Below, piece by piece: positions 1-28,182 of a stretch of 64,000 nt of DNA. This stretch comes from Escherichia coli (GTDB lineage: Bacteria; Pseudomonadota; Gammaproteobacteria; Enterobacterales; Enterobacteriaceae): the NCBI RefSeq assembly GCF_044324875.1, contig NZ_CP172185.1. One strand, given 5' to 3'. A model generated the notes under the pieces. The model had not been told where the DNA came from. It saw nothing but the letters and a program-made list of their open reading frames with translations, and searched no databases. Each line of letters starts with the position of its first letter. Positions within the stretch are counted from its first letter, which is position 1. Position numbers and translations under genes: made by a program.

Positions 1-1725
<1,725 letters not shown>

Positions 1726-1793
1726 GTCTGAATCCGGCCGACCCAAAATTTTCCCCCAAGCTTCTCCCGGTATCTTTTAAGAGTATTGATTAC

Positions 1794-3002
1794 ATGAACG
1801 ACACCGTTTTAAACGTAATCCCGGTGCCTGTACGCACTTGGGTGGCTATAGCAGCGCTCGGTATCAGTGCATTTTCGATTGTGACCAGCGAGCTTGCGCC
1901 TGTTGGCATGCTTAGTATGCTAGCAAAGGACCTGAACCAGACTGAATCGGACACGGACCTTGTCGTGACTGCATACGGCTGGGTTGGGGCTCTGGCAGCA
2001 CTTTTGTCTGGATTGATACCAGCGAGAATTTCACGTAAGTCTTTGTTAGTGACTCTTATGGTAGTGTTTGCTTTGTCTTGTGTGGCGGCGACACAGTCAT
2101 CACTCGATGACCCTATTTATGGGGGCGCGTATGACAGGCGCTTTAGCACATGGTGCTTTCTGGGCTTTGATTGGAGCAGTGGCTTCACAGCTTGTTCCGG
2201 CTGAAAAACTAGGACTGGCCACCTCAGTTATTTTTGGCGGCGTTTCGGCTGCCAGCGTTCTGGGTGTGCCACTGTCGAGTTTTATTGCGGATATGGCCGG
2301 GTGGCGGAGTGCGTTTACGGCGATTTCTCTGCTGTCACTTGCCGCCGCCTGTGCTCTATTCTGGACGCTCCCCACACTGACGGTGCCACAACCACTGAGG
2401 CTGCGTGTTTACTACGGGATATTCAAAAACCCGGTGCTCCTTTCCCTCTATGGTGCCACTGCCTGTATTATTTCGGCTCATTTTGCGGCATTCACTTACC
2501 TCCAACCACTACTGACGAAGACTCAGGAAGTACCGACGGCTTCGATTTCTGGCCTACTGCTGATGTCCGGGCTCTCCGGTCTGGCCGGAAATATCATTGC
2601 CGGAAAGCTGATCGACCGTCATATCAAAGGGCTGATTTTCGCTTCACTGCTCCTGAGCGCAGGTGCGCTCGGCATACTTGGTATGAGGAGCGCTGCACCA
2701 CTGCCTTTCTGGTTCACAGGCATACTGCTCGCAGTTTGGGGCGCGGGTATCGCCATTGTATTCGTTGGGTTGCAGACAGGTTGCTCCGTAGCGCCGGGGA
2801 TGCTGTACAACCGGCGTCAGCCATTTACGTTACAATTTTTAACGCAGCGATCGGCACCGGTGCGCTTGTGGGAGGCCAGGTATTAGCCGTAAAAGGTATT
2901 CAGGGTATGGCCTTACTTGCTGCGGGCATCATTGCATGCAGCATAGCTCTGGTCGCAATGCTGAAAAGCCCCGCGAATAAGCTCAGGCCTGAAAGGTCGT
3001 GA
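1794..3002 (+). pseudogene. MFS transporter (DHA1 / sugar-efflux-like) disrupted by two frameshifts
   Basis: Three consecutive overlapping ORFs in different frames (1722-2204, 2068-2886, 2301-3002) together give a continuous 12-TMS-like MFS protein. Frame switches fall near 2100-2200 and 2800-2880. Confidence 0.65.
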
Positions 3003-3370
3003 CGAATTCAAAAACGCATTAACCGACAGTAATTAAATGAGAGGGACGTGTCAGAAGAGGCTTCCCCTTATTTTATACGTCCAGTTCGGTAAAGAGTATT
3101 AGCCCACAGGACGAGGCTTATCCGAAACTACAACTCTGAAGGATTTAGTTAATCGCTTTAGAATTTCCAACTTCCGTTCCTCGCTCACAGCAGACCTTAA
3201 GATCTAGGAGGGAGTCCGCTCAGTGCCATGGGCGGACCTTAAGCTTCAGTAATTTGATTAGCACAATCCCTATGATAAATAGACTGGCCCCCTGAATCTC
3301 CAGACAACCAGTATCACTTAAATAAGTGATAGTCTTAATACTAGTTTTTAGACTAGTCATTGGAGAACAG

Positions 3371-3736
3371 ATGATTGATGTCTTAGGGCCGGAGAAACGC
3401 AGACGGCGTACCACACAGGAAAAGATCGCAATTGTTCAGCAGAGCTTTGAACCGGGGATGACGGTCTCCCTCGTTGCCCGGCAACATGGTGTAGCAGCCA
3501 GCCAGTTATTTCTCTGGCGTAAGCAATACCAGGAAGGAAGTCTTACTGCTGTCGCCGCCGGAGAACAGGTTGTTCCTGCCTCTGAACTTGCTGCCGCCAT
3601 GAAGCAGATTAAAGAACTCCAGCGCCTGCTCGGCAAGAAAACGATGGAAAATGAACTCCTCAAAGAAGCCGTTGAATATGGACGGGCAAAAAAGTGGATA
3701 GCGCACGCGCCCTTATTGCCCGGGGATGGGGAGTAA
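3371..3736 (+). CDS. insC: IS2 InsC (OrfA, HTH)
   Basis: Translation reads [56 protein letters not shown].... Confidence 0.85.
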
Positions 3737-4599
3737 GCTTAGTCAGCCGTTGTCTCCGGGTCTCACGTGCGCAACTGCATGCCATGGCCCGTCGGTCGAA
3801 GGACTGGCAGGATCGTCGGTGCAAGCGCAAGCCTGATGATACTGACGCGCTGGCCCGTATCCATACCGTTATCGGCGATCTGCCCACCTATGGTTATCGT
3901 CGGGTATGGGCACTGCTGCGCAGACAATCAGAAACTGACGACATGGCGGTGATCAATGCCAAACGCGTATACCGCATCATGCGTCAGAATGCGCTGCTGC
4001 TTGAGCGTAAACCGGAAATACCGCCATCGAAGCGGGCGCATACAGGGAAAGTGGCCGTTGGAGAAAGTAACCAGCGGTGGTGCTCTGACGGCTTCGAGTT
4101 CAGCTGTGATAACGGTGAAAAACTGCGGGTCACGTTCGCTCTGGACTGTTGCGATCGCGAGGCACTTTACTGGGCGGCCAGTAACGGTGGATATGACAGT
4201 GAAACCGTGCAGGACGTCATGCTGGGTGCCGTGGAGCGTCGTTTCGGTAACAGCCTGCCGACATCCCCAGTTGAGTGGCTGACAGACAACGGTTCAGCCT
4301 ACCGTTCTTATCAGACGCGTCAGTTCGCCAGAATGGTAGGACTGGAGCCTAAACATACGGCGGTACGTAGCCCGGAAAGCAACGGGATGGCAGAGAGCTT
4401 CGTGAAAACGATGAAGCGCGATTACATCAGCATCATGCCGAAACCCGACGGGTTAACAGCGGTAAAGAACCTTGCGGAGGCCTTCGAACATTACAACGAA
4501 TGGCATCCGCATAGTGCACTGGGGTATCGTTCGCCACGGGAATATCTGCGGCGGCGAACCAGTAATGGGTTAAGTGATAAAAAGTGTATGGAAATATAG
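3694..4599 (+). CDS. insD: IS2 InsD (OrfB, DDE integrase core); expressed as InsCD by a -1 frameshift
   Basis: 301-aa ORF with the retroviral-integrase-like core ...[11 protein letters not shown]...[12 protein letters not shown]. It overlaps insC in the -1 frame. Confidence 0.85.
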
Positions 4600-4613
4600 G
4601 GGCCAATCCAATT

Positions 4614-4967
4614 GCACTGTTTCGAGGCTATCCGGCGACGATAAGAACTGACCAGGGGCCGGAGTTCACTTGCCGTGCACTGGATCAATGGGCCTTTGAG
4701 CATGGTGTTGAGTTGCGCTTAATCCAGCCGGGCAAGCCAACGCAGAACGGATTTATTGAGAGCTTTAACGGACGATTTCGCGATGAATGTTTGAATGAGC
4801 TCTGGTTCAGCGATATCGTTCATGCCAGGAAAATTATTAATGACTGGCGGCAGGATTATAACGAATGCCGCCCGCACTCCACGCTGAATTATCAGACACT
4901 GTCTGAATTTGCAGCGGGCTGGAGAAAGGGTCATTCTGAGAATGAAGATTCCGACGTTACTAACTGA
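4614..4967 (+). pseudogene. C-terminal remnant of an IS3-family (IS407-group) OrfB transposase, cut by IS2
   Basis: Begins immediately after the IS2 end and reads ...[54 protein letters not shown]...[10 protein letters not shown]. This is the DDE-core tail typical of the IS407 subgroup. No upstream half is present. Confidence 0.7.
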
Positions 4968-4979
4968 GTGTTGTATCTA

Positions 4980-5646
4980 ATCGTGGGGGCAGGTCACAGC
5001 TATACGGACACGGTCAAATAGAGCACTTGCTATAACTGATCTTAAACATCCTAAATTTGATGTTAGAGTTCAGATACATAGTTCTGCCGCAAGGTATGCA
5101 GATAAGTTAGCTGCTGAAATAGTTTCAGCATATTATGATAACTCTGAGCTGGCATATGAAAGCGATTCTCCGTTTCAATTTGGTGTTATTCGAGTTCCTC
5201 GTAACGCTACTCACTTTGAGCATTCATTATATGAAAAGTACTCAGGACTTAATAAGTTCGAGGCTCCTTTTGCTGAGGCTTTAGATAGGTCTGGTTACCC
5301 TTGGCACAGAAACCTGAGCAGTGGCGGTTTTCATATCCCACTATTGACAGAGGGTGATACAAGCTCATTTTATCCAGACTTTTTAGTATGGAAGTCAGAC
5401 CTTGTCTATTGCCTTGATACCAAGGGGGGCCATCTATTGACTGCTGCCGTAGCGCGCAAGCTTTTTAATATTCATGAAGATGGTCGGAGTAAGATTCTAG
5501 TGAGATTTATCACAGAAGGAAAGCAGACAGAGCTGCGCGGCAAAGCAACAAAGGGAGGATATACTGTATGGAAAATGAAATCTGGGCATCCTACCCCAAT
5601 TTATGTGGCGGATTTAGACAAAGCTGTTAGGGAATGTCTAAAATAG
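4980..5646 (+). pseudogene. C-terminal fragment of a restriction-endonuclease-like (type III Res-like helicase-nuclease) protein
   Basis: Low-GC open frame without a start codon. It ends ...SSFYPDFLVWKSDLVYCLDTKGGHLLTAA..., a PD...(D/E)XK nuclease motif (PDF...DTK) of the kind found at the C-terminus of type III Res and related defence helicases. Confidence 0.45.
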
Positions 5647-5792
5647 CGAAGCCATAGCATAGAATTTTTAATGGCATTATGATCAGGACATAAAGGACTT
5701 CATGCAGGGAAAAAATATCCCAAAAGAAACTGGTCATGTCAGCACACCAAAGGATCCTCGCCGGATCCTTTGGTTTTTCTCAGCCACAATCG

Positions 5793-5830
5793 CTTAACGT
5801 GAGTTTTCGTTCCACTGAGCGTCAGACCCC
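5793..5830 (-). repeat. Solitary Tn3-type 38-bp terminal inverted repeat
   Basis: cttaacgtgagttttcgttccactgagcgtcagacccc is the reverse complement of the Tn3 IR GGGGTCTGACGCTCAGTGGAACGAAAACTCACGTTAAG. The outer (GGGG) end is at 5830. The ~30 bp on the inner side resemble the IR-proximal sequence of Tn3. Confidence 0.75.
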
Positions 5831-5905
5831 TATAAACACCTTAGTGAAGTCATCCTCGCAGGTAAGGCAACACATCCGTAAGGTATTTGGCCAAATCAAA
5901 TACAA

Positions 5906-6901
5906 CTAGATTGACTCGCGGGGAAGCCAGGGACTCTCAACTATCACTTTATCCCGGTGGGTGTCACCATTGATAATGTGCAGTGTACTTAAGCGCCCAA
6001 TTTCATAATGCGGTAGCTGGACCGTGGATAATGGGGGTAAAAATAAGTTTCCAATGCCTACAAGATTGTCATAGCCAAGAACGGCAATATCCTGTGGGAT
6101 TCTGATACCCTGCGTTAACAATGTTTGATACACCATAAATGCAATACGATCGTTACCACAGATGACCGAATCAAATCGCGGTTTCCCCTGTTCGATATGC
6201 GCCAGCAACATCTCCGGAATATCTCGGTAGTGCTCATCGCCGAATTGCATATAGCAGTGCTCAAGCGTATCAGGATCGATACTGGCTTCCCTGCAGGCGC
6301 GATCAAGCCCACGACGACGACGACGCGTCGCCAGATGGTTGACGGGTAAATGCAGGCATAGAGGGCGGCTGTATCCTGCTGCCAGCAGTGCCTGTACGGC
6401 CGTATACTGGCCATGTTCATCGTCAGGTATATAGCTGGCAACCGGCTCTCCCTTGTTCTCGCAGTTGGCCAGAACGCAAGGAAGCTCCAGTAACCGGGGA
6501 GGAATACTGACTTCACGCAGCCCCATGGTAGTAAAAATGATCCCCCCGGGTCGATGGGCGAGCAGCAGGTCGACAATATCGTCAGGATTATCATCGGTAA
6601 ACATATTCACCACAAAGCTGTTCCAGCCATACGCCCGCGCGGTTTCTTCAATAGACAGCGTGATTTCTACTGAAAAAGGAGTGGTGACCGTATCCAGCGC
6701 AAGCACACCAATCGTTTTGTTCCGGGTGCCAACACGACGAATCTGCTGGGCAGAAAGGTCTGGCACATAATTTAACTGCGTGATCGCCTCCTGCACCCGA
6801 GCCAGAGTCTCAGGCTTTACGCGTTTCGGGTCATTCAGCACCCGTGAAACCGTCATGAGCGATACATTGGCCAGTTTGGCCACATCCTTTAAAGACGCCA
6901 T
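5906..6901 (-). CDS. fosR: LacI/GalR-family repressor, divergent from the fos operon
   Basis: 331 aa. N-terminal HTH reads MASLKDVAKLANVSLMTVSRVLN, followed by a periplasmic-binding-protein-like sugar-binding domain. It lies divergent to the transporter gene. Confidence 0.85.
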   Translation of the reverse strand: MASLKDVAKLANVSLMTVSRVLNDPKRVKPETLARVQEAITQLNYVPDLSAQQIRRVGTRNKTIGVLALDTVTTPFSVEITLSIEETARAYGWNSFVVNMFTDDNPDDIVDLLLAHRPGGIIFTTMGLREVSIPPRLLELPCVLANCENKGEPVASYIPDDEHGQYTAVQALLAAGYSRPLCLHLPVNHLATRRRRRGLDRACREASIDPDTLEHCYMQFGDEHYRDIPEMLLAHIEQGKPRFDSVICGNDRIAFMVYQTLLTQGIRIPQDIAVLGYDNLVGIGNLFLPPLSTVQLPHYEIGRLSTLHIINGDTHRDKVIVESPWLPRESI

Positions 6902-7031
6902 AGTTTTCCATTATCTGAATGCATACACCCGGTAAGGTGTTGTGAGCAAATGCGAATGCCCTATTCTAGGCACGGACACCCAGGGTTATGCAGACCACTC
7001 TGATAAATTTGAGCTAGATCTCAACATTTCA

Positions 7032-7044
7032 ATGTTAACGTTAA
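7032..7044. promoter_or_regulatory. Candidate LacI-family operator palindrome in the fosR-fosT intergenic region
   Basis: tgttaacgttaac is a near-perfect palindrome with a central CG, ~100 bp upstream of fosT. Confidence 0.35.
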
Positions 7045-7141
7045 CTTTTGTGATTAACATCGACAAACAAATCAAAATCGAGTGTCCCCCCAAAATGATA
7101 ACGTTACCATATTAGCATATCCTTCTTACGAGATTACGTAG

Positions 7142-8380
7142 ATGAAAAAACGGCCTACTCGAAGTTACATGCTGCTCAGCGCTCTGCTGTTCTTTTTCTT
7201 TGTGACCTGGTCCTCATCAAGTTCACTGCTCTCAATCTGGCTTCACCAGGAAGTGGGGCTAAAAGCATCGGAAACCGGCATTATTTTTTCAGTATTATCC
7301 GTCTCCGCGCTCTTCGCGCAGGTCTGTTATGGCTTTATTCAGGACCGACTTGGTCTGCGCAAACATTTGTTATGGTTTATCACCGCGTTGTTGATCCTCT
7401 CCGGCCCGGCTTATCTGCTTTTTAGTTATTTGCTGAGCGTTAATATTCTGCTGGGCAGCGTATTCGGGGGCTTATTTATCGGGCTGACGTTTAATGGGGG
7501 TATCGGCGTTCTGGAGTCCTATACCGAGCGCGTCGCGCGTCAAAGTACCTTTGAGTTTGGGCGGGCACGCATGTGGGGGTCTCTGGGCTGGGCAGTTGCC
7601 ACGTTTTTTGCCGGGTTACTGTTTAATATCAACCCTGACCTTAACTTCCTGGTGGCTTCATGCTCAGGGTTAATCTTCTTCTGCCTCCTGGCCCGATTAA
7701 AGGTGGCCGCGCCGGCAAGCATGGAGAAACTCGAAATTGGCGCTAAAAAAGTTTCTCTGGAAGACGCCCTGCGTCTGCTTACTCTGCCGCGCTTCTGGGC
7801 ACTGATATTCTTCGTGGTCGGAACCTGCATTTACGGCGTATACGATCAGCAATTCCCGGTCTATTTCTCATCACAGTTCCCGACATTACGCGAAGGGAAC
7901 GAGATGTTTGGCTATTTAAACTCTTTCCAGGTCTTTCTCGAGGCCGCAGGTATGTTTTGTGCGCCGTGGCTGGTTAATCGCATTGGTGCTAAAAATGGTC
8001 TGATATTCGCAGGAATGGTGATGGCGCTGCGCATGATTACTTCAGGGCTGGTGGAAGGCCCCCTGCTTATCTCCATTACCAAACTGCTTCACGCGGTCGA
8101 ACTGCCAATATTGTTAGTCGCCATATTTAAATACAACAGTCTGAATTTCGACAAACGTCTCTCCTCCACCATTTATCTGGTGGGATTTGCCTGCACCAGC
8201 TCCGTCATTGGTACCGTATTGTCCCCGCTGGCAGGCTTTAGCTATGAGAGATTTGGCTTCGCCCAATCCTATCTGATCATGGGCATCATGGTGTTCAGCA
8301 CCACGTTTATTTCCATTTTCCTTTTGCGCTCAACTAAATCCTCATCTGAGCCATCTTTTCTGCAGCAAAAAGCTGTGTAA
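7142..8380 (+). CDS. fosT: Oligosaccharide:H+ symporter (LacY/RafB/CscB-like MFS)
   Basis: 412 aa with 12 predicted TMS; OHS-family features throughout the sequence. Confidence 0.85.
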   Translation: MKKRPTRSYMLLSALLFFFFVTWSSSSSLLSIWLHQEVGLKASETGIIFSVLSVSALFAQVCYGFIQDRLGLRKHLLWFITALLILSGPAYLLFSYLLSVNILLGSVFGGLFIGLTFNGGIGVLESYTERVARQSTFEFGRARMWGSLGWAVATFFAGLLFNINPDLNFLVASCSGLIFFCLLARLKVAAPASMEKLEIGAKKVSLEDALRLLTLPRFWALIFFVVGTCIYGVYDQQFPVYFSSQFPTLREGNEMFGYLNSFQVFLEAAGMFCAPWLVNRIGAKNGLIFAGMVMALRMITSGLVEGPLLISITKLLHAVELPILLVAIFKYNSLNFDKRLSSTIYLVGFACTSSVIGTVLSPLAGFSYERFGFAQSYLIMGIMVFSTTFISIFLLRSTKSSSEPSFLQQKAV

Positions 8381-8399
8381 TGTACTGAGAATAAAGACG

Positions 8400-9833
8400 A
8401 TGACATCCTTATTAGAACAGGCTGAACAGGTGCTTGAAAAAGCACAATCCGGGATTAATCCGCGCTGGTATCCGCGCTATCACCTCGCCCCTCGCGCAGG
8501 CTGGATGAATGATCCTAATGGCCTGGTATGGTTTGACGGCTGGTATCACGCCTTTTATCAACACCATCCCTACTCCCCGAAATGGGGTCCGATGCACTGG
8601 GGGCACGCCCGAAGCAAAGATCTGGTGCATTGGGAACATTTGCCCGTCGCGCTAGCGCCGGAAGGCCCGGCGGACAAAGACGGCTGTTTCTCAGGTTCCG
8701 CCGTGGTGGACGGCGATACGCTGGCGCTCATCTATACCGGACATAAATTTCACGGCCCGTCGGACACTGACGACAACCTCTACCAGGTGCAGTGTCTGGC
8801 GACCAGTCGTGACGGCATCCATTTTGAACGGCACGGCAAGGTGATTGATACACCGCCCGGACTGCATCACTTTCGCGATCCGAAGGTGTGGCGCGAAGGT
8901 GAGTTCTGGTACATGGTTGTCGGTTCCCGCGTGGAAAATACCGGTCAGGTGCGCCTGTACCGTTCCACCGATCTCCGCGAATGGCATGACGAAGGTATTT
9001 TCGCCGAGGCTGATGAAGGCAAGGGCTTTATGTGGGAATGCCCGGATTTCTTCCCCCTGGGAGAGAAGCGTGTCCTGATGTTCTCGCCGCAGGGCATGGC
9101 GGCGGAAGGGTATCACTATCGCAACCTGTTCCAGAGCGGTTATTTACTTGGGGACTGGCAGCCAGGTCAACCGTTCACCCACAGCGGACAATTTACTGAG
9201 CTGGACCACGGCCACGACTTTTATGCCCCGCAGAGTTTCCTGACCCCGGATGGCCGACGCATTGTCATCGGGTGGCTGGATATGTGGGAATCATCGATGC
9301 CCGAACAGCAGGATGGCTGGGCCGGAATGCTCTCGCTTCCTCGCGAATTAAGCCTTGTCGATGGTCGTGTGAGAATGAAACCTGCTGCCGAAGTGACCGC
9401 GCTGCGTGGCAGCTATTATCCCACGCCCGTCCGCTGTCTGAACAATCAGAACGTCCTTGTCGCGGCAAATGCCGACGCGGTCGAAGTTCAGTTGGCATGG
9501 GATTTGAGCGCATCGACGGCTGAACAGTTTGGTATCGCGTTGGGCGACGGGTTGAGAATTTACGTCGATGATCAGGCTGGGCGTCTGGTGGTGGAGCGCC
9601 GCTATCCGGAATATTCGCTGGAAGGCACTCGCAGTATTCCGCTTCCAGCAGACAGCGTTCTGTCACTGCGAATTTTTATTGACCGCTCATCGGTGGAAGT
9701 TTTTGTTAACGATGGTGACGCTTGCTTAAGCAGTCGTATTTATCCGCAGCCGGGCGAGCGTGATATTTCATTGTTTGCAAATCTGGGGAAGGCCTCATTA
9801 TACGATGCGGGATACTGGTCTTTAGATAAATAA
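8400..9833 (+). CDS. fosGH2: GH32 beta-fructofuranosidase, cytoplasmic (sucrose-6-P hydrolase / invertase-like)
   Basis: 477 aa. Carries the GH32 N-terminal WMNDPNGL motif, the RDP motif (HFRDPKV) and EC motif (WECPDF). No signal peptide. Confidence 0.85.
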   Translation: MTSLLEQAEQVLEKAQSGINPRWYPRYHLAPRAGWMNDPNGLVWFDGWYHAFYQHHPYSPKWGPMHWGHARSKDLVHWEHLPVALAPEGPADKDGCFSGSAVVDGDTLALIYTGHKFHGPSDTDDNLYQVQCLATSRDGIHFERHGKVIDTPPGLHHFRDPKVWREGEFWYMVVGSRVENTGQVRLYRSTDLREWHDEGIFAEADEGKGFMWECPDFFPLGEKRVLMFSPQGMAAEGYHYRNLFQSGYLLGDWQPGQPFTHSGQFTELDHGHDFYAPQSFLTPDGRRIVIGWLDMWESSMPEQQDGWAGMLSLPRELSLVDGRVRMKPAAEVTALRGSYYPTPVRCLNNQNVLVAANADAVEVQLAWDLSASTAEQFGIALGDGLRIYVDDQAGRLVVERRYPEYSLEGTRSIPLPADSVLSLRIFIDRSSVEVFVNDGDACLSSRIYPQPGERDISLFANLGKASLYDAGYWSLDK

Positions 9834-9997
9834 TTCTCCGTTCCGACCTGTTTCTTGCAGGGTGAGTTTTTATTTCTGCCAGTCTCTGGCTGGCATGTTA
9901 TTGTCTGGAATAATGAGAGAGCAAAATGGATGAAAGCGTAATACCTCAAAATTGCATTACCTCGAAAGATAAAAATATATTTGTTCCAGGAAAACAG

Positions 9998-11191
9998 ATG
10001 CTGGCATTAATGGTGACATTAGCAGCATTTCCTGCCATTGCTGAAGACGTTACAGGAAACTATCAAAGCTATTTTCAGGATGAATCAGACACCAACGGTA
10101 CGAGTGTTTCATTAGCCAATCAAGGCAATGAAAAATCATCCCTTAGCGCTTCATCTTCTCCGGTTGCTGCAGGTCAAAAACCTGAACTCACGACCTCGTC
10201 AAAGCCAGTGACGTTATCGGCACCAATGGAGAATAAGAAAACTGCAGTAGAAAAACGTCCTAAAGGGGATAACCCTAAAGATGTCAGTCTGTTGCGTTTA
10301 AGGCAGGAAGATCCGCCGGTTCACTGGAACAGTATTGGTCGTAACATGGAAGTGGGTAGCTTGCATGGGAACATTGGATCTCAGATAGAAATTGACGATG
10401 TTCGCTGGAGCAATAATAAGAAAAACAGCGGCAAGTTTAAACTCGCCACCATTCAGGCTTTTTTAAGGCACGATGAATTGCCTAACTGGTATTTCGGTTT
10501 CTGGAATGCCAGAGAAGACAGTTATAAAGGACAGTTCAGTAATCAGGACTATAAAGGCACCAATACCATCAATGAATTTTTTGTGGGCCATATTTTCGAA
10601 ACCTGGCGGGGTAATATCGGTACGGAAGTCATGGTCGGCTCCGAAACGGCAACTAAACGCTGGAAAAACCGGTTCAAAGTCTGGCAGGACCTGCGACTGT
10701 CCAACAAATGGAGCCTGGCCGGATACGCGTATGGCGAGTATCAGCCTCAGGGGAACGAACCGGGGAATGGCGATCTGGAGCAGTACATTTTCGAAATTGA
10801 GCCAGCCATTCAATACCGCGTGAATCCGGATCTCGGACTCTATTTGCGGCCCTATTATTACCATAACCGCCAGGAGCGTCAGAGCTGGGGCGACATTGTA
10901 GAAGAAGAATGGAAAGTCACGGCCGGGCTCTGGCGAAACTGGTATCCATTATTAACCTCCCTGTATGTTGGATTTGGCCAGGACAAAATAGATAACGCCA
11001 GCAATGCCAGCGAAGTTTTCTATGACGGCCGTTATAAGTTTATCGGTGGAACGCTGAGTTATCCGGTATTTGGTGAGGTGCGATTATATGGTGAATTCAA
11101 GGCACAATTTACGAAAGAAACCGGACTTTGGACATCAACCGGTCACTCATGGAATCCGTTTACCGTGGTTGGCGTGAATTATAACTTCTGA
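9998..11191 (+). CDS. fosX: Putative outer-membrane beta-barrel protein (candidate oligosaccharide porin); ORF may start at 9926
   Basis: Signal peptide MLALMVTLAAFPAIA begins at 9998. The protein is rich in aromatic/Gly residues and ends ...VGVNYNF with a C-terminal Phe. It is a paralogue of the ORF at 12712-13725 (shared WRNW and NYNF/DYNF motifs). Confidence 0.6.
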   Translation: MLALMVTLAAFPAIAEDVTGNYQSYFQDESDTNGTSVSLANQGNEKSSLSASSSPVAAGQKPELTTSSKPVTLSAPMENKKTAVEKRPKGDNPKDVSLLRLRQEDPPVHWNSIGRNMEVGSLHGNIGSQIEIDDVRWSNNKKNSGKFKLATIQAFLRHDELPNWYFGFWNAREDSYKGQFSNQDYKGTNTINEFFVGHIFETWRGNIGTEVMVGSETATKRWKNRFKVWQDLRLSNKWSLAGYAYGEYQPQGNEPGNGDLEQYIFEIEPAIQYRVNPDLGLYLRPYYYHNRQERQSWGDIVEEEWKVTAGLWRNWYPLLTSLYVGFGQDKIDNASNASEVFYDGRYKFIGGTLSYPVFGEVRLYGEFKAQFTKETGLWTSTGHSWNPFTVVGVNYNF

Positions 11192-11205
11192 TATTCAGGT
11201 GTAGC

Positions 11206-12699
11206 ATGAAAAAATTAATAGTTGCGGCATCTTTCGCTCTGCTTGCGCTTTCGCTCGGCAATAACCCTGCCTGGTCACAGCCTTCGAAAGAGACATTACA
11301 GAATAAAAGCATCACCCATATTAATGGCTTTTTTCCGAGGGTTGAAGGTTCATTCGTGGGCGACCCTATGCCCGTTTTTAACGATGGCAAATTTGATATT
11401 TATTATCTTAATGATGTCCGAGGCGGCAGCGATCTGGGGGTACATGCTTTTCATCTCTTGTCGAGTGCCAACTTGTATGATTATCAGAACCATTCGGAAG
11501 TGATCCCCTACGTTAACGACGTTGACGATCCTGAACTGTTATTGGGAACCGGTTCGATTATTAAAGTCGGCGATACCTGGCATGCCTGGTACACCGCACA
11601 CAATGAAAATGTGTTCCCGGTTGAGTCTGTTATGCACGCGACCAGTAAGGACCGCCTTCACTGGGTGAAACACCCGCAGGACACCCTGTTACCCGGCGGT
11701 AACTATCGGGGTAATGATTTCAGGGACCCTCACGTCGTTTGGGTTGAGGAAAAGAAAGAATACTGGATGTTAATTACTACGCGCAGTAATGGTCGTGGGG
11801 TTATTGCCCGATACAGTTCAACGGATTTAAAGCACTGGGAAGATCGCGGCGTATTTTTTGATAACGACACCATCACCAGCAATGCCAACCTCGAATGCCC
11901 GACACTGGTTTACTTCAACGGACGCTGGTATCTCAGCTTTAGCGACCAATGGCCGTTACGCCTGACACAATACCGGGTTGCGGACAATCCGGAGGGGCCG
12001 TGGCGGAAACTGGACAATTATGTGGTCGACGGCTCAGGTTTTTACGCGGGTAAACTGGTTCTCAAAAACGATCGGCTGTTTGTTTTCGGCTGGATCCCGA
12101 CGAAAGCCGGTAACCGTGACAGCGGCAACATTGATTGGGCAGGGAATCTGGTTGCTCATGAGCTCACCGCAGATGCCCAGGGCCAGCTCAACAGCATCCT
12201 CCCCCAGGAGCTTCAGAAGGTCATCAGTGAGAATCCTGGCCCGGAAACCACCTTGACGAGCACTAAGACACTCAAAACGGACACGTCGTTCGGCCCCTTA
12301 CAGTCGGCGCTGTACCCGGCCTTGCCTGAGCGCGGTGAGTTGAGTGCAACCATCGATGTTCCTTCTGCCGGAATGGTGATGAGCTTTGGTCTGACCGACG
12401 ACAGAGTCAGTGATGCGATGCTGAACGTTGTGTTCAATAAGAGCAAAGGAAAAGTCTATTTTTTCAACGCGCCGCTAGCGTCGATTCATCAGGCTAACGC
12501 GGAATCCTGGGTGGACATTCCGATCGGGGAAAAAATTGAGTTACGCGTTCTCATACAAAACTCAATTGCTGTCTTTTATATAAACAACAAAGTGGCATTC
12601 AGTACCCGGATGTATTCCATGCAGGAGAAACCGTGGAGTATTAGCCTGCCTCAAAACGACCATTTTCACGCGACGTTGAAAATAAAAGAAATGATTTAA
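11206..12699 (+). CDS. fosGH1: GH32 fructan/fructooligosaccharide hydrolase with signal peptide (periplasmic/exported)
   Basis: 497 aa. Signal peptide MKKLIVAASFALLALSLGNNPAWSQ, then the GH32 motifs (RDPHV, ECP). Confidence 0.8.
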   Translation: MKKLIVAASFALLALSLGNNPAWSQPSKETLQNKSITHINGFFPRVEGSFVGDPMPVFNDGKFDIYYLNDVRGGSDLGVHAFHLLSSANLYDYQNHSEVIPYVNDVDDPELLLGTGSIIKVGDTWHAWYTAHNENVFPVESVMHATSKDRLHWVKHPQDTLLPGGNYRGNDFRDPHVVWVEEKKEYWMLITTRSNGRGVIARYSSTDLKHWEDRGVFFDNDTITSNANLECPTLVYFNGRWYLSFSDQWPLRLTQYRVADNPEGPWRKLDNYVVDGSGFYAGKLVLKNDRLFVFGWIPTKAGNRDSGNIDWAGNLVAHELTADAQGQLNSILPQELQKVISENPGPETTLTSTKTLKTDTSFGPLQSALYPALPERGELSATIDVPSAGMVMSFGLTDDRVSDAMLNVVFNKSKGKVYFFNAPLASIHQANAESWVDIPIGEKIELRVLIQNSIAVFYINNKVAFSTRMYSMQEKPWSISLPQNDHFHATLKIKEMI

Positions 12700-12711
12700 C
12701 GGGATATTATT

Positions 12712-13725
12712 ATGAAAAACTATCATGCCCTGTCTGTTATTTTTACTCTTATGTTACCCGCGCTGGCGAATGCGAGCATGAGCATCATGAAGGATCCGTC
12801 TGGAAAGGTTATCGCCGTGGACCCTTGGTCATATCTTGATGAAGATGTTATGTGGACCTCAGCCCGCTCCTCCAATCCTGCCGGTGGCCGCGTTCATGGC
12901 CAACTGAAAATGAAATATGCCATTGAGGATAATAACTGGCGTAACAGCCATTTCCACAACGGGAATGATTCGCTGACGTTTGTACAAGGTGTGATGCGGC
13001 ACGATGCGTTACCCGGTTGGTATCTGGCTTTCTCTGAGGGCAGAACCACTAACTATAACGGGACGTGGGAGGATCAGTCTTACCTCAGCCAAAACCAGTG
13101 GACTCAGTTGATCATCGGCCATGAATATTTTTACAAGCGTCTGCGCTATGGCTGGGATGTGATGGGAGGAAGCGCCTCAATCGAAGACCGCTGGCAAGGC
13201 CGCGTTAAGTTCTTTACCGATCTTCGGGTTACGGATAATTTCTCATTCTTTAACTACCTGTATCAGCAGATCGATCACCGGCGCAGCGGTGGGTCGCAAA
13301 ACGACCGTGACGTGCGTTCATTTCAGATTGAGCCAGGCGTGCAATACATTATTAATAACAACACCGGTGTCTGGTTCCGCCAGCAGTTCGCATCTGCCAT
13401 TTTAGACAGGGCGCAGTGGGGCGATATCGACGAAAAAAGCTGGACCACGTCAGTCGGCGTCTGGCGAAACTGGGGGAAGTTATCCACAACGCTCAGCGGC
13501 GGTTATGGTCATTATAAGAAATACAATGCGCAACCTGAGGATGGCGAAGTCTTTCAGAATACCCGCAATCGCTTCCTGAAGGTATCGGCAAATTATCCTT
13601 TGACCTCTCGTTTTACCGTGTCCGGAGAAGTTACTGGTTCGTTGATCAAACAGAACGGAAGTTGGGTCACTAACGGTGAGGCCATTACCACTGAGTATAA
13701 GCTGATGCTGGATTATAACTTTTAA
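12712..13725 (+). CDS. fosY: Putative outer-membrane beta-barrel protein, paralogue of fosX
   Basis: 337 aa. Signal peptide MKNYHALSVIFTLMLPALANAS; C-terminal ...LMLDYNF. Shares the WRNWG and alternating-aromatic pattern with the 9998-11191 ORF. Confidence 0.6.
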   Translation: MKNYHALSVIFTLMLPALANASMSIMKDPSGKVIAVDPWSYLDEDVMWTSARSSNPAGGRVHGQLKMKYAIEDNNWRNSHFHNGNDSLTFVQGVMRHDALPGWYLAFSEGRTTNYNGTWEDQSYLSQNQWTQLIIGHEYFYKRLRYGWDVMGGSASIEDRWQGRVKFFTDLRVTDNFSFFNYLYQQIDHRRSGGSQNDRDVRSFQIEPGVQYIINNNTGVWFRQQFASAILDRAQWGDIDEKSWTTSVGVWRNWGKLSTTLSGGYGHYKKYNAQPEDGEVFQNTRNRFLKVSANYPLTSRFTVSGEVTGSLIKQNGSWVTNGEAITTEYKLMLDYNF

Positions 13726-13838
13726 ACCGTACGCTGGATAATCCATGCCACCTGAACACGCTGAAGCGTTAGTAAAAATAGTGACCTTACCGCAGGTCAC
13801 GTTTAAAAAAACAAGTTAATTATTATTAAGGAAATATC

Positions 13839-14801
13839 ATGAATATCTGGACTCTTGGCGATGCTGTTGTTGATCTTCTACCCCTTACAGATATGCAATT
13901 TCGTGCTTGTGCAGGAGGTGCGCCATTTAATGTTGCGATAGGTACTGCACAATTGAAATGTCGTACCGGCTTTATAGGTCGCGTAGGGGATGACGATTTT
14001 GGCCATTTCCTGAGAAAAACTCTCGAAGATTCAGGAGTTTCTACACAATGTATCCAAATGGATAAATATCATCGTACAAGTACAGTACTGGTTTCTCTTA
14101 AAGATCAGGGAGAACGTGGTTTTACATTTCTTACGAACCCTTCAGCCGACCAATTTCTAACACAAGATGCCCTTCCAGCTTTTAGTGATGATATCCTGCA
14201 TTTTTGTTCACTTGCGCTGGTTGCTGCAGATTGCCGCACGACTTTGACTAAAGCAGTCCAGGAAGTCATTGACCACGGTGGACTTATCAGCTTTGATGTT
14301 AATTTACGAGACCAAATGTGGCGTGATAAGGAAGAAATGTTTGCGACAGTGAGTCAATTCGCTGAAAAAGCCGATATCCTTAAACTCTCTGAAGAAGAGT
14401 GGTACTGGTTAATGGGTACACATGATTATACAGAGGCGTTAGAAGCACTCAAAACCCATCCTGCCAGATTAAAAGTGGTCACCTTTGGTGCGAGAGGTTC
14501 ATTGGTATTATGGCAAGATATGGTGATACATTTCAGAGGATTTAATGTTAAAAGTATTGACACAACAGGCGCTGGAGATGCTTTTATGGCTGGGTTACTT
14601 GCCAGCATCGCCAATAAAGGTTTGCCAATGAATTTTCCAGAACTTCAATTAGCAATCACTCAGGCCAGTGCCACCGGAGCGCTCGCAACTACCAAAAAAG
14701 GTGCACTTACCGCCCTTCCTGATACAGCCGCACTGGAAACGTTCATTAATCATTTTCCATTACCGGGCTATGAGATCCTTGGAGCAACCGCTACGGTGTA
14801 A
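13839..14801 (+). CDS. fosK: Fructokinase (PfkB ribokinase family)
   Basis: 320 aa with both PfkB signatures (GGAPFN ... DTTGAGDAF). Last gene of the co-oriented cluster. Confidence 0.85.
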   Translation: MNIWTLGDAVVDLLPLTDMQFRACAGGAPFNVAIGTAQLKCRTGFIGRVGDDDFGHFLRKTLEDSGVSTQCIQMDKYHRTSTVLVSLKDQGERGFTFLTNPSADQFLTQDALPAFSDDILHFCSLALVAADCRTTLTKAVQEVIDHGGLISFDVNLRDQMWRDKEEMFATVSQFAEKADILKLSEEEWYWLMGTHDYTEALEALKTHPARLKVVTFGARGSLVLWQDMVIHFRGFNVKSIDTTGAGDAFMAGLLASIANKGLPMNFPELQLAITQASATGALATTKKGALTALPDTAALETFINHFPLPGYEILGATATV

Positions 14802-14909
14802 CAACTTTTCATGCTGTATGGTGTAGGAATATAGCAAACGTATCTTCAATTGTTAGTTATGACCTCTAGAAGTATGAGATATCTTTTGTAGATAATCATG
14901 GCTGTGTAT

Positions 14910-14936
14910 GGGCAGCCTTATACTGCCCCTTTTTCT
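14910..14936 (+). terminator. Rho-independent terminator after fosK
   Basis: Hairpin gggcagccttatactgccc followed by ctttttct. Confidence 0.7.
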
Positions 14937-15081
14937 ATTACCTTAAGAAAGATAAGTACAGTTTGCTTTCCTGGAGATTAATGCATGCTCTGGATAGCAA
15001 TCCTCAACTATCAGCAGAAAGTAGATAAAATTTCAGGGTGGCCCTATAAAAATCATTAGATGCGTTTCTGACGTTACTTAG

Positions 15082-15393
<312 letters not shown>

Positions 15394-15454
15394 TTACTGA
15401 TTTAGTGTATGATGGTGATTTTAAGTAAGCGACTCGTCAGAACCGTATTGATAT

Positions 15455-17026
15455 TTACTGAGAGCTCAGATCAACTTTCCAGGGCAACAGATCGCGTACC
15501 CGGTTTGCCGGCCAGTCCTGGATATGTTCAATGACGTAACGCAGCCACTTTTCTGGCTCCACATTGTTCAGACGGCATGTGCCGATCAGCGAGTACAACA
15601 CCGCCGCATGTTCACCACCGCTGTCGGAACCCGCGAACATCCAGTTTTTCCGGCCTACGGCCACTCCCCGTAAGGCGTTCTCTGCGATGTTGTTGTCGAT
15701 TTCCACCCAGCCATTACTGCAGTACACGTTCAGTGCATCCCACTGTTTCAGCAGGTATGCGAACGCTTTTGCCGTATCTGAGTGACGCGACAGTGTTTTC
15801 ATCTGTTGCTGTATCCAGTCATACAGTGACTGCATCAGTGGCGCGGCTCTGGCTTTTCTTGCCGCCAGACGCTGTTCTGCTGAACAGCCCCGGACCTCTG
15901 CCTCGATGGCATACAGTTCACCGATACGCTGCAGGGCTTCCGTGGTGATGTAGGTGGGCGCTCTTGCATGCACATCGTGGATTTTTCTCCGGGCATGAGC
16001 CATACACGCGGCTTCCGTTATTCTGCCGGATTCGTATAACGCCCGGTAACCACCGTAAGCATCGGCCTGAAGCACACCGCTGTAACCGGCCAGGTGATTT
16101 TGTGGATGGATACCTTTCCGGTCCGGACTGTACGCGAACCAGACCGCCGGGGGCATCTGTGAACCGGCGTTACGGTCATCACGGACGTAGACCCACAGCC
16201 GGGCTGTCCGGGTTTTACCGCTGCCCGGCTCCTGGACCGGGACGGGGATATCATCAGCATGGACTTTACCGGGCATCAGCACATACTGGCGCAGGACGTC
16301 ATACAGCGGCTCCAGCAGTTCAGCAACAGCACCTGTCCAGCGCCCCAGTGTGGCACGGCTCAGCTCCACTCCCTGACGACGGTATATTTCTGACTGGCGG
16401 TATAACGGCAGATGGTCTGCATATTTCCCGGTGACAACATGGGCCAGAAGCCCCGCTCCGGCATAACTGCGTGCAATGGGTTTTGAAGGTACTGGTGCCT
16501 GCACGATATGGTCGCACCGGCAACAGGCCTGTTTCGGACGTTGTGTTTCGATAACCTTAAAGGCGCTGCTGATAAGCTCCAGTTGCTCTGACACATCACA
16601 TCCCAGAGAACTGAGTTCACCACCACAGGCAGGACAGCATTCCTCTTCCGGCCGGATAACCCGGGTTTCACGGGGAAGTGAGGCCGGTAACGGTTTACGG
16701 GCTGAAGACTGGCGCAGGGCGGATGGCAGTACCGGGTCATATTGCTCACCCAGCGTTTCCGCCATTTCTTCCTGAAGTGCGCTGATTCGCTCCTGTGCTT
16801 CCTGTATCTGCCGTTCGGTTTTTGCACGAAGTTTTTCTGAGCTTTTACCGAACTGCATACGTTGCAGTTTCGCAACCAGCGCCTTCAGCCGGTTGATTTC
16901 GGAAGCATAAGCCGCCACCCGCTGTGAGAGCAGGCGGTTGTATTCAGCCATCTGGCGGATGGTGTCCTGTTGCGTCTGCAACAGTGCCCGCAGGCGGGCG
17001 TTCTCATGAGCAAGTGAGGTGTCCAT
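15455..17026 (-). CDS. tnpC: IS66-family transposase TnpC
   Basis: 523 aa with N-terminal coiled-coil/leucine zipper, a CxxC...CxxC zinc motif and the IS66 DDE core. Confidence 0.85.
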
Positions 17027-17045
17027 ATCCTCACTTTACAACGGG

Positions 17046-17393
17046 TTATATGCGGATTCCAGCGCGTTCCGTTCGTTTCGGGTGCTTCCAGTTGATACCT
17101 TCAAGAAGCATGGATAACTGAGCCGGAGTAAGGTGCACCTTGCCGTCACGGGTGACTGGCCAGACGAAGCGGCCCCGCTCCAGGCGTTTGGTGAAGAGGC
17201 ACAGTCCGTCACTGTCAGCCCACAACACTTTTATCTGGTCACCCCGGCGTCCGCGGAAGATGAACAGGTGTCCGGAGAACGGGTCATCCTTCAGGACGTT
17301 CTGAACTTTTGATGCCAGGCCGTTAAAGCCATTTCGCATATCGGTGATACCTGCAACCAGCCAGATACGCGAACCTGCAGGGAGAGATATCAT
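17046..17393 (-). CDS. tnpB: IS66-family Orf2 (TnpB)
   Basis: 115 aa starting MISLPAGSRIWLVAGITDMRNGFNGLA..., a conserved IS66 accessory protein. Confidence 0.85.
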   Translation of the reverse strand: MISLPAGSRIWLVAGITDMRNGFNGLASKVQNVLKDDPFSGHLFIFRGRRGDQIKVLWADSDGLCLFTKRLERGRFVWPVTRDGKVHLTPAQLSMLLEGINWKHPKRTERAGIRI

Positions 17394-18070
17394 CAGTGGC
17401 TGCTCCCTTTTATTTCGCGGATAAGTGTCTGTAATAACGCCGGCGTCAGTTTACCTTTAAGCCTGAGAGTTCCGGCCGGCAGAACCAGCTCACAACACAG
17501 ACTGTCGGACGGTGTATTTATCTGCTCTGGTTCCTGTGCGGGGGCCGGGATTTTATTATCCGGCTCCGGCGTTAACGTCACGGGAAGCAGTGCCGGCATA
17601 TTTTTTCCGGAAGGCAGCAGGCCACCTTTCCGGTATTGATGGCGCCAGTTGAAGAGCAGGTTATCGTTGATTCCGTTTTCCCGGGCGATCTGCGCCACAC
17701 AGGCTCCGGGCTGCAGTGACTGCTCCACTAAGGCGATTTTAAACTCATAAGGGAAGTTGGGCCGCCGGGGACGTTTTTTTACCACGGGGGCTTCGGATAT
17801 AACGGTGCTTTCAGGACGTACGACTGGTACCGTGGAAAATTGTCCGTAAAGGCAGGCATCAAGTTCCTGCTCCGACATGCCTGCGGGCAAAGGCCACGAA
17901 AGGCCAGCTCTCCGAAAGCGCACGAACATACTACAAACTGTTGATTTTGGTACACCCAGGCGACGCCCGGCCACAACCCGGGGTAAATGTTCTTCAAAGT
18001 GAAGACGTAAAGCTTCAGTGATCCAGGTCCGGTGTTTCATACGATAGTGTCCATTAAAAATGATGGACAT
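17393..18070 (-). CDS. tnpA: IS66-family Orf1 (TnpA, HTH)
   Basis: ORF of 225 aa overlapping tnpB by ATGA. The true start may be an internal Met, since IS66 Orf1 is usually shorter. Confidence 0.65.
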   Translation of the reverse strand: MSIIFNGHYRMKHRTWITEALRLHFEEHLPRVVAGRRLGVPKSTVCSMFVRFRRAGLSWPLPAGMSEQELDACLYGQFSTVPVVRPESTVISEAPVVKKRPRRPNFPYEFKIALVEQSLQPGACVAQIARENGINDNLLFNWRHQYRKGGLLPSGKNMPALLPVTLTPEPDNKIPAPAQEPEQINTPSDSLCCELVLPAGTLRLKGKLTPALLQTLIREIKGSSH

Positions 18071-21818: not shown

Positions 21819-21826
21819 ATACTCCC

Positions 21827-23128: not shown

Positions 23129-23389
23129 AATCACCCCACCGGATGTAATAAATGATCGAGCGACAACGCAGCTCGGGGTTGCCACATCCCACTTTACCTT
23201 TCGGCTTAATACTTAAACCGGAACTACTCATTCACAATAAAAGAGGGGGGCGATGAAAAAAAGTTGGTATTGTGCACGTTTTTTCATAAGTAGTTCATAT
23301 AAATTCTAAAAATAGTCAGAAGTCCTTGCAGTCAGGCTATTCCATCCCATGAGAATTTTTTCATTTTGAAATTAGAGATAGATCACAAT

Positions 23390-27794: not shown

Positions 27795-27889
27795 CTGGCG
27801 GAAGATCACAGGAGTCGAACCTGCCCGGGACCGCTGGCGGCCCCAACTGGATTTGAAGTCCAGCCGCCTCACCGGAGACGACGATCTTC
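27795..27889 (-). tRNA. selC: tRNA-Sec (selC)
   Basis: The reverse complement matches the E. coli selC sequence GGAAGATCGTCGTCTCCGGTGAGGCGGCTGGACTTCAAATCCAGTTGGGGCCGCCAGCGGTCCCGGGCAGGTTCGACTCCTGTGATCTTCCGCCA (95 nt). Confidence 0.95.
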
Positions 27890-28182
27890 CGCGCCTCGAT
27901 TGCTACATGGAGGCGGGGCGCATTATAGCTACTTCCTTGAGTTTCTACATCCCCCAGATCAGTTTTTTCCGCCTAATACACGCAGCGTATTATCACGGAA
28001 GCATTATAATTCATATAAAACCCATATTTTACAATGATATATGAGCGGAATTAACGCTACCACGATCACATAAAACAAGAATCATAAATTAATAACCAGA
28101 TATCGGAATATTCGCTCTCACAGGGATGGTTTACAAAATGCGTTATCGGTCTCAGCACCCCTATAGCATCAAGGAAAAGCAG

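Follow-up and report, generated by a model that had tools for sequence, protein, structure and literature searches.

A chromosomal fos operon of Escherichia coli, identical to that of island AGI-3, and a proposed envelope-to-cytoplasm route for short-chain fructooligosaccharides

We analysed a stretch of 64,000 nucleotides from Escherichia coli (assembly GCF_044324875.1, contig NZ_CP172185.1; hereafter the window), in which positions 5906-14936 carry a seven-gene cluster for the use of fructooligosaccharides (FOS). With a probability of about 90%, we identify this cluster as the fos locus of AGI-3, a genomic island associated with selC. On this reading, the operon is horizontally mobile, stands under the control of CRP and FosR, and serves the catabolism of short-chain FOS (scFOS, GF2-GF4). 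An initial annotation, made from the letters of the sequence alone, had called it a fos-like FOS-utilisation operon, which was correct and even understated: at the precision reported, its 9,031 nucleotides (nt) show 100.0% identity over the full length to many E. coli chromosomes, including that of strain BEN2908 (NZ_LR740776.1). The cluster received the name fos in BEN2908, an avian extraintestinal pathogenic strain that carries it on the selC-associated pathogenicity island AGI-3 (GenBank AY857617). Because of this 100.0% match to a strain in which the cluster was described and tested as fos, the locus is already known; the cluster in the window is a previously described, experimentally studied system that recurs unchanged in dozens of sequenced strains, and its presence here is not new, a point that the initial annotation had missed. 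The work on the BEN2908 fos locus and its island is reportedly that of Schouler 2009 and Porcheron 2011 and 2012. As for the products of the cluster, a route leading through outer-membrane barrels and periplasmic cleavage to the symporter FosT, the hydrolase FosGH1 and the kinase FosK is, in our judgement, probable.

The cluster and its published counterpart

All seven genes that the initial annotation had placed here, with their order and coordinates, were borne out by the list of open reading frames (ORFs) and by profile searches against Pfam and NCBIfam. The region 5906-14936 contains seven intact ORFs, one on the minus and six on the plus strand. On the minus strand, fosR (5906-6901, 331 amino acids (aa)) encodes a LacI/GalR-family repressor (Pfam LacI helix-turn-helix, E 4e-19; Peripla_BP_1, E 6e-45) and is divergent from the other six genes. 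On the plus strand, fosT (7142-8380, 412 aa) encodes a LacY-family oligosaccharide:H+ symporter of the inner membrane (LacY_symp, E 7e-126), and fosGH1 (FosE1; 8400-9833, 477 aa) encodes a predicted cytoplasmic beta-fructofuranosidase of family GH32 (Glyco_hydro_32N and 32C). These are followed by fosX (9926-11191, 421 aa) for a predicted 14-stranded outer-membrane barrel with a long disordered N-terminal extension (Porin_OmpG_1_2, E 4e-130), fosGH2 (FosE2; 11206-12699, 497 aa) for an exported, predicted periplasmic GH32 enzyme of the BT1760-like clade (Glyco_hydro_32N and GH32_BT1760-like_C), fosY (12712-13725, 337 aa) for another predicted 14-stranded outer-membrane barrel (Porin_OmpG_1_2, E 8e-129), and fosK (13839-14801, 320 aa) for a probable fructokinase of the PfkB family (Pfam PfkB, E 1e-53). 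The plus-strand genes are closely spaced, with intergenic gaps of 19, 92, 14, 12 and 113 nt. The operon closes with an intrinsic terminator on the plus strand (14910-14936), GGGCAGCCTTATACTGCCC followed by CTTTTTCT, in which the hairpin GGGCAG-N7-CTGCCC occupies 14910-14928; this agrees with the clean terminator noted before, and the operon end at 14936 is correct. The arrangement, fosR and then the divergent fosT-fosGH1-fosX-fosGH2-fosY-fosK, is also the gene order listed in PMC3325963 and in bioRxiv 10.64898/2026.02.25.707879.

The position of the cluster fits the same identification. About 13 kb downstream of fos, the window holds tRNA-Sec (27796-27890, minus strand) and the integrase ORF of the island (26312-27496, minus strand, 394 aa), a tyrosine recombinase according to the BEN2908 annotation, and yicJ and yicI lie beyond the tRNA gene. 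The tRNA and integrase genes have a matching layout in BEN2908, with the same genes downstream of fos.

The published experiments on BEN2908 concern identical DNA. In that strain, scFOS as the sole carbon source supports growth (PMC3325963), and the fos locus cloned in E. coli K-12 MG1655 conferred an approximately tenfold competitive advantage in the presence of scFOS (bioRxiv 10.64898/2026.02.25.707879). The initial annotation had named the lack of a growth advantage on short-chain FOS as the outcome that would speak against it, and both of these reports point the other way. A fosT::kan mutant of BEN2908 was Fos-, and a plasmid with the whole locus restored growth (PMC3325963). By these reports, growth of BEN2908 on scFOS requires the locus, which when cloned also transfers the trait to K-12. 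At the level of regulation, FosR was identified as the repressor of the operon, binding two operator sequences in the fos promoter, and the whole cluster was found to be co-transcribed from this single FosR-controlled promoter (PMC3325963). Expression was induced by scFOS and repressed by glucose through catabolite repression, with a CRP-cAMP site reported, and the operon was dispensable for virulence while giving an advantage in caecal content and in the colonisation of chicken caeca (PMC3325963).

Predicted localisation, folds and the proposed route

Judged by a hydrophobic core and the -3/-1 rule, signal peptides are predicted on FosX, FosGH2 and FosY only, and no hydrophobic stretch or signal peptide was found at the N-termini of FosGH1 and FosK. 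The two GH32 enzymes, which the initial annotation had placed in different compartments, are thus separated in the prediction as well, FosGH2 with a cleavable signal and FosGH1 without one. FosY begins with MKNYHALSVIFTLMLPALANA, with predicted cleavage before S. In FosX, the hydrophobic signal core spans residues 25-39 after an unusually long n-region and ends in AIA, followed by ED. Both FosX and FosY end in an invariant ..YNF, with a C-terminal Phe, across the orthologue alignments. A C-terminal aromatic residue is the usual signal of outer-membrane barrels.

Structure prediction with AlphaFold2 is consistent with this placement. The FosY model, built with 24 homologues, has a mean predicted local distance difference test score (pLDDT) of 81.6, a predicted template modelling score of 0.77 and 14 transmembrane strands. 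The FosX model shows a confident 14-stranded barrel at residues 144-421, and residues 1-143 have a pLDDT below 50; the Pfam domain Porin_OmpG_1_2 spans residues 118-421. The two proteins share 31% identity. A sequence search of the PDB returned no solved structure for either of them, and CymA and OmpG are the best structural matches of the models by a clear margin. The term porin-like used in the initial annotation is supported and, from the models, can be sharpened to a CymA/OmpG-like 14-stranded channel. The general porins OmpF and OmpC have a cut-off of about 600 Da. Dedicated channels make sense for these substrates, because GF3 (666 Da) and GF4 (828 Da) exceed this limit. CymA itself is a passive channel, in which alpha-cyclodextrin (about 1 kDa) passes a 15-Å pore that an N-terminal segment occupies from the periplasmic side (PMC8049027).

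The N-terminal part of FosX (9926-10350, residues 1-143) has features of its own. Directly after the predicted signal cleavage site stands a nearly invariant Y.G.YQSYF.DE motif (loci L002-L025 and alignment A3), followed by a variable linker rich in S, T, A and P, very roughly 25-150 residues long, and then, at the beginning of the barrel, by the conserved sequence VSLLRLRQ..PPVHW. The FosX orthologues of Brenneria are shorter and lack the motif, and FosY has no such leader. We found no published function for the motif, and AlphaFold2 on full-length FosX left the leader unstructured (pLDDT below 50), which gives no evidence for or against a plug. We also considered a start of fosX at Met25, the short form found in some database entries. 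This start is less likely, as orthologues that lack this Met retain the MDE.. start further upstream; from these alignments, the long form of FosX appears more likely.

FosGH2 begins with MKKLIVAASFALLALSLGNNPAWS, followed by Q, which gives a cleavage site of the type AWS before Q and no lipobox Cys. The orthologues examined from enterobacteria and Orbaceae all retain the signal peptide, and Firmicute homologues (about 40% identity) have either none or a lipoprotein-type one. The catalytic triad D53, D174 and E230 lies in GDPMP, RDP and ECP and is invariant in 19 homologues. Beyond the match to PF16346 (GH32_BT1760-like_C), the only close solved relatives of FosGH2 are entries of BT1760 (31% identity over 429 aa, E 1e-45), the endo-levanase of Bacteroides thetaiotaomicron, an enzyme with an open pocket that cleaves within the chain (PMC6560043). 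The counterparts of its nucleophile and of its -1/+1 subsite residues T104, C222, Q239 and R244 are aligned and conserved in FosGH2 (residues according to PMC6560043). Among the loops described for BT1760 (PMC6560043), loop 1 has equal length with another sequence, loop 2 is shorter by 3 residues and loop 4 by 5. By analogy with the open pocket and internal cleavage of BT1760, FosGH2 may split GF3, GF4 or longer chains rather than trim them from one end. The initial annotation had the exported GH32 trimming FOS in the periplasm; export agrees with the conserved signal peptide, but the closest solved relative is an endo-acting levanase and no exo-trimmer, and trimming, like the periplasmic role itself, is a proposed activity.

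For the inner membrane and the cytoplasm, the assignments are more familiar. The LacY_symp match of FosT (Pfam, E 7e-126) covers residues 7-400, the NCBIfam model of oligosaccharide transporters of the major facilitator superfamily (MFS), TIGR00882, scores 419 bits against a cut-off of 220, and comparison with solved structures leads to LacY (E 1e-83). In a 2026 review, FosT is cited as able to import, as an MFS transporter, substrates up to a degree of polymerisation (DP) of 4 (PMC13543919). FosGH1 carries its triad D38, D160 and E213 in WMNDPNG35, RDP159 and ECP213, and its nearest solved structure is 7vco, a beta-fructofuranosidase-type enzyme (E 2.5e-163). FosGH1 and FosGH2 both have the beta-propeller catalytic domain of GH32. 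In most genomes, the RefSeq name for FosK is aminoimidazole riboside kinase. The best NCBIfam model of FosK is fructokinase NF006957 (346 bits, below the equivalog cut-off of 450), and among solved structures its best relatives are two fructokinases, 5ey7 and 5ygg (E 8e-77), with the aminoimidazole riboside kinase of Salmonella, 1tyy, scoring less well (E 1e-57). Because profiles and solved structures alike point to a fructokinase, this function fits FosK better, and the RefSeq name is probably an artefact of annotation transfer.

Together, these predictions outline the following route. GF3 and GF4 would pass the outer membrane by way of FosX and FosY, acting as monomeric 14-stranded CymA/OmpG-like channels, and FosGH2, exported by the Sec pathway and maybe endo-type, would cleave longer oligomers in the periplasm. 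FosT, as an H+ symporter of the LacY family, would import oligomers up to about DP4, the cytoplasmic FosGH1 would hydrolyse them to fructose and glucose, and FosK would convert fructose to fructose-6-phosphate, while the imported oligosaccharide would lift repression by FosR. The periplasm-to-cytoplasm route of the initial annotation is supported by the signal peptides on FosX, FosGH2 and FosY but not on FosGH1 and FosK, by the 14-stranded barrel models and by the GH32 triads, and its envelope steps remain predicted ones. It offers concrete assignments for envelope proteins that the literature had left unassigned.

Several points weigh against this route. The criteria used for the signal peptides are a rule of thumb. 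FosX and FosY have been termed proteins of unknown function (PMC3325963), and we found no published experiment on FosX, FosY or FosGH2 individually. The linkage and the endo/exo specificity of FosGH2 are not readable from its sequence, because the nearest characterised relative cuts beta-2,6 levan rather than beta-2,1 scFOS and because loops 2 and 4 are shorter. In the fosT mutant, a Kan cassette replaces the gene, and complementation used the whole locus (PMC3325963, Table 1), so that polarity on the five downstream genes is possible and the specific role of FosT is not cleanly separated. Furthermore, without FosT no inducer should reach FosR, and the operon, including fosGH2, would stay repressed. 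The Fos- phenotype of this mutant therefore neither proves the import of intact oligomers nor opposes periplasmic hydrolysis.

An envelope module and a cytoplasmic module

To place the locus among its relatives, one genome per species was scanned, which gave FosGH2 relatives in 80 loci, and the seven Fos proteins were mapped onto the closest 30. Of these, 29, all Gram-negative, carry FosX, FosGH2 and FosY, from Enterobacter, Erwinia, Citrobacter, Pantoea, Kosakonia, Phytobacter, Lelliottia, Hafnia, Klebsiella, Cedecea, Raoultella, Pseudescherichia, Brenneria, Orbaceae and Anaerobiospirillum; the 30th, from a Vibrio metagenome-assembled genome (L031), has only a GH2 relative with 40% identity. 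In all 29 loci, fosX-fosGH2-fosY are contiguous and in that order. This strict linkage is the strongest indirect evidence that FosX, FosGH2 and FosY work together.

The remaining genes are less firmly attached. fosT and fosGH1 are adjacent in 22 loci. In Brenneria (L026, L027 and L030), fosT lies 2-8 kb further downstream beside an inverted fosK, with fosGH1 following it where the sequence stretch reaches far enough, and an Orbaceae genome has the order T-X-GH2-Y with fosGH1 missing. In an Anaerobiospirillum sp. (L020, 7165-12502), fosR-fosX-fosGH2-fosY stand between the housekeeping genes glnA/metG and a MatE gene, and no fosT, fosGH1 or fosK was found within 10 kb; apparently, the envelope module can also operate together with different uptake systems that are not linked to it. 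Conversely, truncated fosR-fosT-fosGH1 loci without the triplet have been described in Klebsiella (PMC3325963) and also occur on plasmids (H55-H60). By gene content and order, fos behaves as a conserved envelope module, fosX-fosGH2-fosY, plus a separable cytoplasmic module, fosT-fosGH1(-fosK). The same survey qualifies the remark in the initial annotation that two GH32 enzymes in different compartments are unusual. The remark holds within E. coli; in the locus family, at least 24 of the 29 Gram-negative loci carry both, and one exported and one cytoplasmic GH32 are, as predicted from these sequences, the norm.

The separability of the two modules also touches on what the envelope proteins are for. 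Conceivably, though we regard this as rather unlikely, the envelope module mainly serves fructans that are longer or beta-2,6-linked (levan, levan-type FOS or inulin), with FosGH2 as a periplasmic endo-fructanase cutting the chains let in by the large-pore barrels, and the fosT-fosGH1-fosK core alone handles GF2-GF4. That entries of the endo-levanase BT1760 are the only close solved relatives of FosGH2, and that the -1/+1 subsite residues (PMC6560043) are conserved in it, would suit such a role, as would the loci with fosR, fosT and fosGH1 but no module, the module without fosT or fosGH1 in Anaerobiospirillum, and the passage of molecules of about 1 kDa through CymA-like channels (PMC8049027). 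However, scFOS induces the operon, and a single FosR-controlled promoter drives transcription of the whole cluster (PMC3325963). FosGH2 also has shorter versions of loops 2 and 4, the ones that shape the distal subsites of BT1760, and fructan of high molecular weight is too large for a 14-stranded barrel.

A different view would deny that FosX and FosY are uptake channels and give them another envelope role, for example anchoring FosGH2 or exporting it to the surface, with the N-terminal tether of FosX involved. It could draw on the two different barrels that always flank fosGH2 in the 29 loci and on the conserved N-terminal motif that FosX carries on a disordered tether of variable length. 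Nevertheless, we consider it very improbable, given that sugar channels, CymA and OmpG, are the best structural matches by a clear margin and that FosGH2 has an ordinary Sec signal peptide with neither a lipobox nor a recognisable secretion signal. Substrate-specific porins in sugar operons also have precedents in ScrY, LamB, CymA, OmpG and KdgM.

Least credible of all is that fos is a sucrose (csc/scr-like) or raffinose-type operon in which the use of FOS is incidental. The core families are indeed those of the csc regulon, which comprises the LacY-family permease CscB, the GH32 invertase CscA, the fructokinase CscK and the LacI repressor CscR, and whose counterparts here are a LacY-family permease, a GH32 enzyme, a PfkB fructokinase and a LacI-type repressor. 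FosGH1 also scores 477 bits with NCBIfam scrB_fam, above the cut-off of this sucrose-6-phosphate hydrolase subfamily model. Two large-pore barrels and an exported GH32 of an endo-fructanase clade would, however, be needless for sucrose, yet they are strictly conserved together, and the identical DNA shows scFOS-dependent induction, scFOS-dependent growth and a Fos- phenotype on disruption (PMC3325963). We reject the sucrose reading on the published scFOS phenotype (PMC3325963) and the conserved X-GH2-Y arrangement.

The reading that we prefer is that of an scFOS operon whose substrates probably enter through FosX and FosY. A further idea, which we regard as less likely than not, is that fosX-fosGH2-fosY could be a self-contained, previously uncharacterised Gram-negative envelope module for fructan uptake, made of two non-redundant CymA-like barrels and a periplasmic endo-fructanase. 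The YQSYF.DE tether of FosX might then plug and gate a channel, either its own or that of FosY, or might dock FosGH2 at the channel exit. If true, this would make the module a passive-diffusion counterpart to the SusC/D utilisome of Bacteroides.

Regulation, spread and known systems

The region between fosR and fosT contains candidate sites that match the published control of the operon. A candidate CRP-like site, TTTGAGCTAGATCTCA (7008-7023, plus strand), has two mismatches to TGTGA-N6-TCACA; it has the form TTTGA-N6-TCTCA, whose TTTGA..TC.CA core is kept across 12 orthologous intergenic regions. A search for the CRP consensus over the 64-kb window returned matches at chance level, and the site is not significant alone, so its support comes from conservation and the literature (PMC3325963). 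Candidate FosR operator 1 (7033-7061, plus strand) consists of TGTTAACGTTAAC, a LacI-type palindrome at 7033-7046, and the adjacent TGATTAACATC, and candidate operator 2, TGATAACGTTACCA (7096-7109, plus strand), lies 33 nt upstream of the fosT start codon. The LacI-type palindrome TGTTAACGTTAACA, with at most 2 mismatches, has two copies in the window, where 0.18 are expected, and both fall between fosR and fosT. Both palindromes and TGATTAACATC are invariant in 12 orthologous intergenic regions from 12 genera, in which the mean column identity is otherwise 55%. The two candidate operators and the CRP-like site, located here from sequence, agree with the reported two FosR operators and CRP dependence (PMC3325963). 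A sigma-70 consensus promoter scan gave no excess over shuffled sequence and no hit in the fosR-fosT intergenic region.

A further conserved element, the hairpin TGCCAGTCTCTGGCTGGCA with an 8-bp stem (9877-9895, plus strand), lies in the 92-nt gap between fosGH1 and fosX and adjoins the boundary of the cytoplasmic and envelope modules. It is nearly invariant across genera while its flanks vary, with pair-preserving changes in two Pantoea loci (L010 and L016). The element lacks a clear T-run and folds in context with a z-score of only -1.7, and an Rfam scan of 5500-15500 with E up to 1 gave no match, so it does not belong to a known RNA family. Possible roles of the hairpin are attenuation, RNA stability and protein binding.

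With regard to distribution, a fos match of any extent was found in 52 of 5,426 complete E. coli genomes and at least 80% of the locus in 37 of them, which at about 0.7-1% of complete genomes confirms the earlier statement that such loci are rare in E. coli. The 53 matching places in E. coli comprise 35 on chromosomes and 18 on plasmids. An earlier survey had found fos in 10 of 133 strains (PMC3325963). In PLSDB, 47 plasmid records have a fos match, 39 of them predicted conjugative, and Salmonella enterica and Klebsiella michiganensis are among the plasmid hosts, with fos at 99.7% identity. fos is a documented fitness island that lets extraintestinal pathogenic E. coli, and strains with certain conjugative or resistance-associated plasmids, feed on prebiotic scFOS. 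This is relevant for the use of prebiotics in poultry, horses and humans, and fos has already been used as a positive-selection cassette.

The composition of the locus varies along its length. The GC content is about 0.53-0.58 over fosGH1 and falls to about 0.42-0.49 across fosX to fosK. In loci L003-L015, fosK is 66-71% identical to that of the window, and the remaining fos genes are about 71-98% identical; the fosK of Enterobacter sp. MGH 24 is 100% identical. The drop in GC content and the divergent identity pattern of fosK suggest that the operon is a mosaic in which fosK was swapped separately.

The island around fos is rich in insertion sequences (IS; window 1-5000 and 15455-18070). ORFs of the IS3 family (ISEc27-like) lie upstream of fos at 3694-4967, and just downstream of the fos terminator an IS66-type transposase ORF of 523 aa (15455-17026) is intact. 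The flanking IS elements may explain the transfer of fos onto plasmids. Just downstream of the fosR stop codon, a perfect hairpin with a 12-bp stem, ACCAAAGGATCC..GGATCCTTTGGT, is followed by a T-run (5746-5774), and a 100-aa ORF stands at 5344-5646, where the matching place in BEN2908 carries no annotation; the ORF and the hairpin look like a gene remnant with its own terminator. Between fos and the integrase lies a second sugar-utilisation cluster of the same island (19431-24460), with a GH31 glycosidase gene (19431-21818, minus strand), an MFS transporter gene (21827-23185, minus strand) and a divergent gene for a LacI-family regulator (23366-24460, plus strand), annotated alike in BEN2908.

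Compared with known systems, the closest is the fos locus of AGI-3 in BEN2908, which has the same seven genes in the same order and selC-island context and the same regulatory layout with two operators and a CRP site. The locus itself shows no difference; the surrounding IS content differs, as BEN2908 has IS5 and IS1 remnants where the window has the intact IS66-type ORF. The fos operon of IncHI1 and other conjugative plasmids, already described for IncHI1 (PMC8926264, PMC12987596), matches the locus with 99.7-99.8% identity in 37 plasmid records; those copies are plasmid-borne, whereas fos in the window is chromosomal, next to tRNA-Sec.

The Fos barrels resemble CymA, the cyclodextrin channel of Klebsiella oxytoca, and OmpG of E. 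coli in fold but share only about 10-17% sequence identity with them and belong to a separate Pfam family, PF16946. Unlike CymA and OmpG, they occur as two paralogues side by side, and the leader of FosX has about 100 residues, predicted disordered, compared with 15 residues for the CymA plug. Among the sucrose regulons, scr adds to the csc gene set the porin ScrY, an 18-stranded LamB-type trimer with an N-terminal periplasmic extension. To our knowledge, neither csc nor scr has an exported GH32, and their substrate range differs from that of fos.

The fructan polysaccharide utilisation locus of B. thetaiotaomicron offers the nearest likeness in logic. BT1760 and FosGH2 share the GH32 catalytic domain and the BT1760-like C-terminal sandwich, and in both systems an envelope fructanase would feed oligomers to an importer and further GH32 enzymes. 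The ORF list and profile search gave no SusC/D-type gene at the fos locus. BT1760 is a surface lipoprotein that acts with a TonB-dependent SusC/D pair (PMC7782687), whereas FosGH2 has a non-lipoprotein signal and is predicted to work with passive barrels and an MFS symporter.

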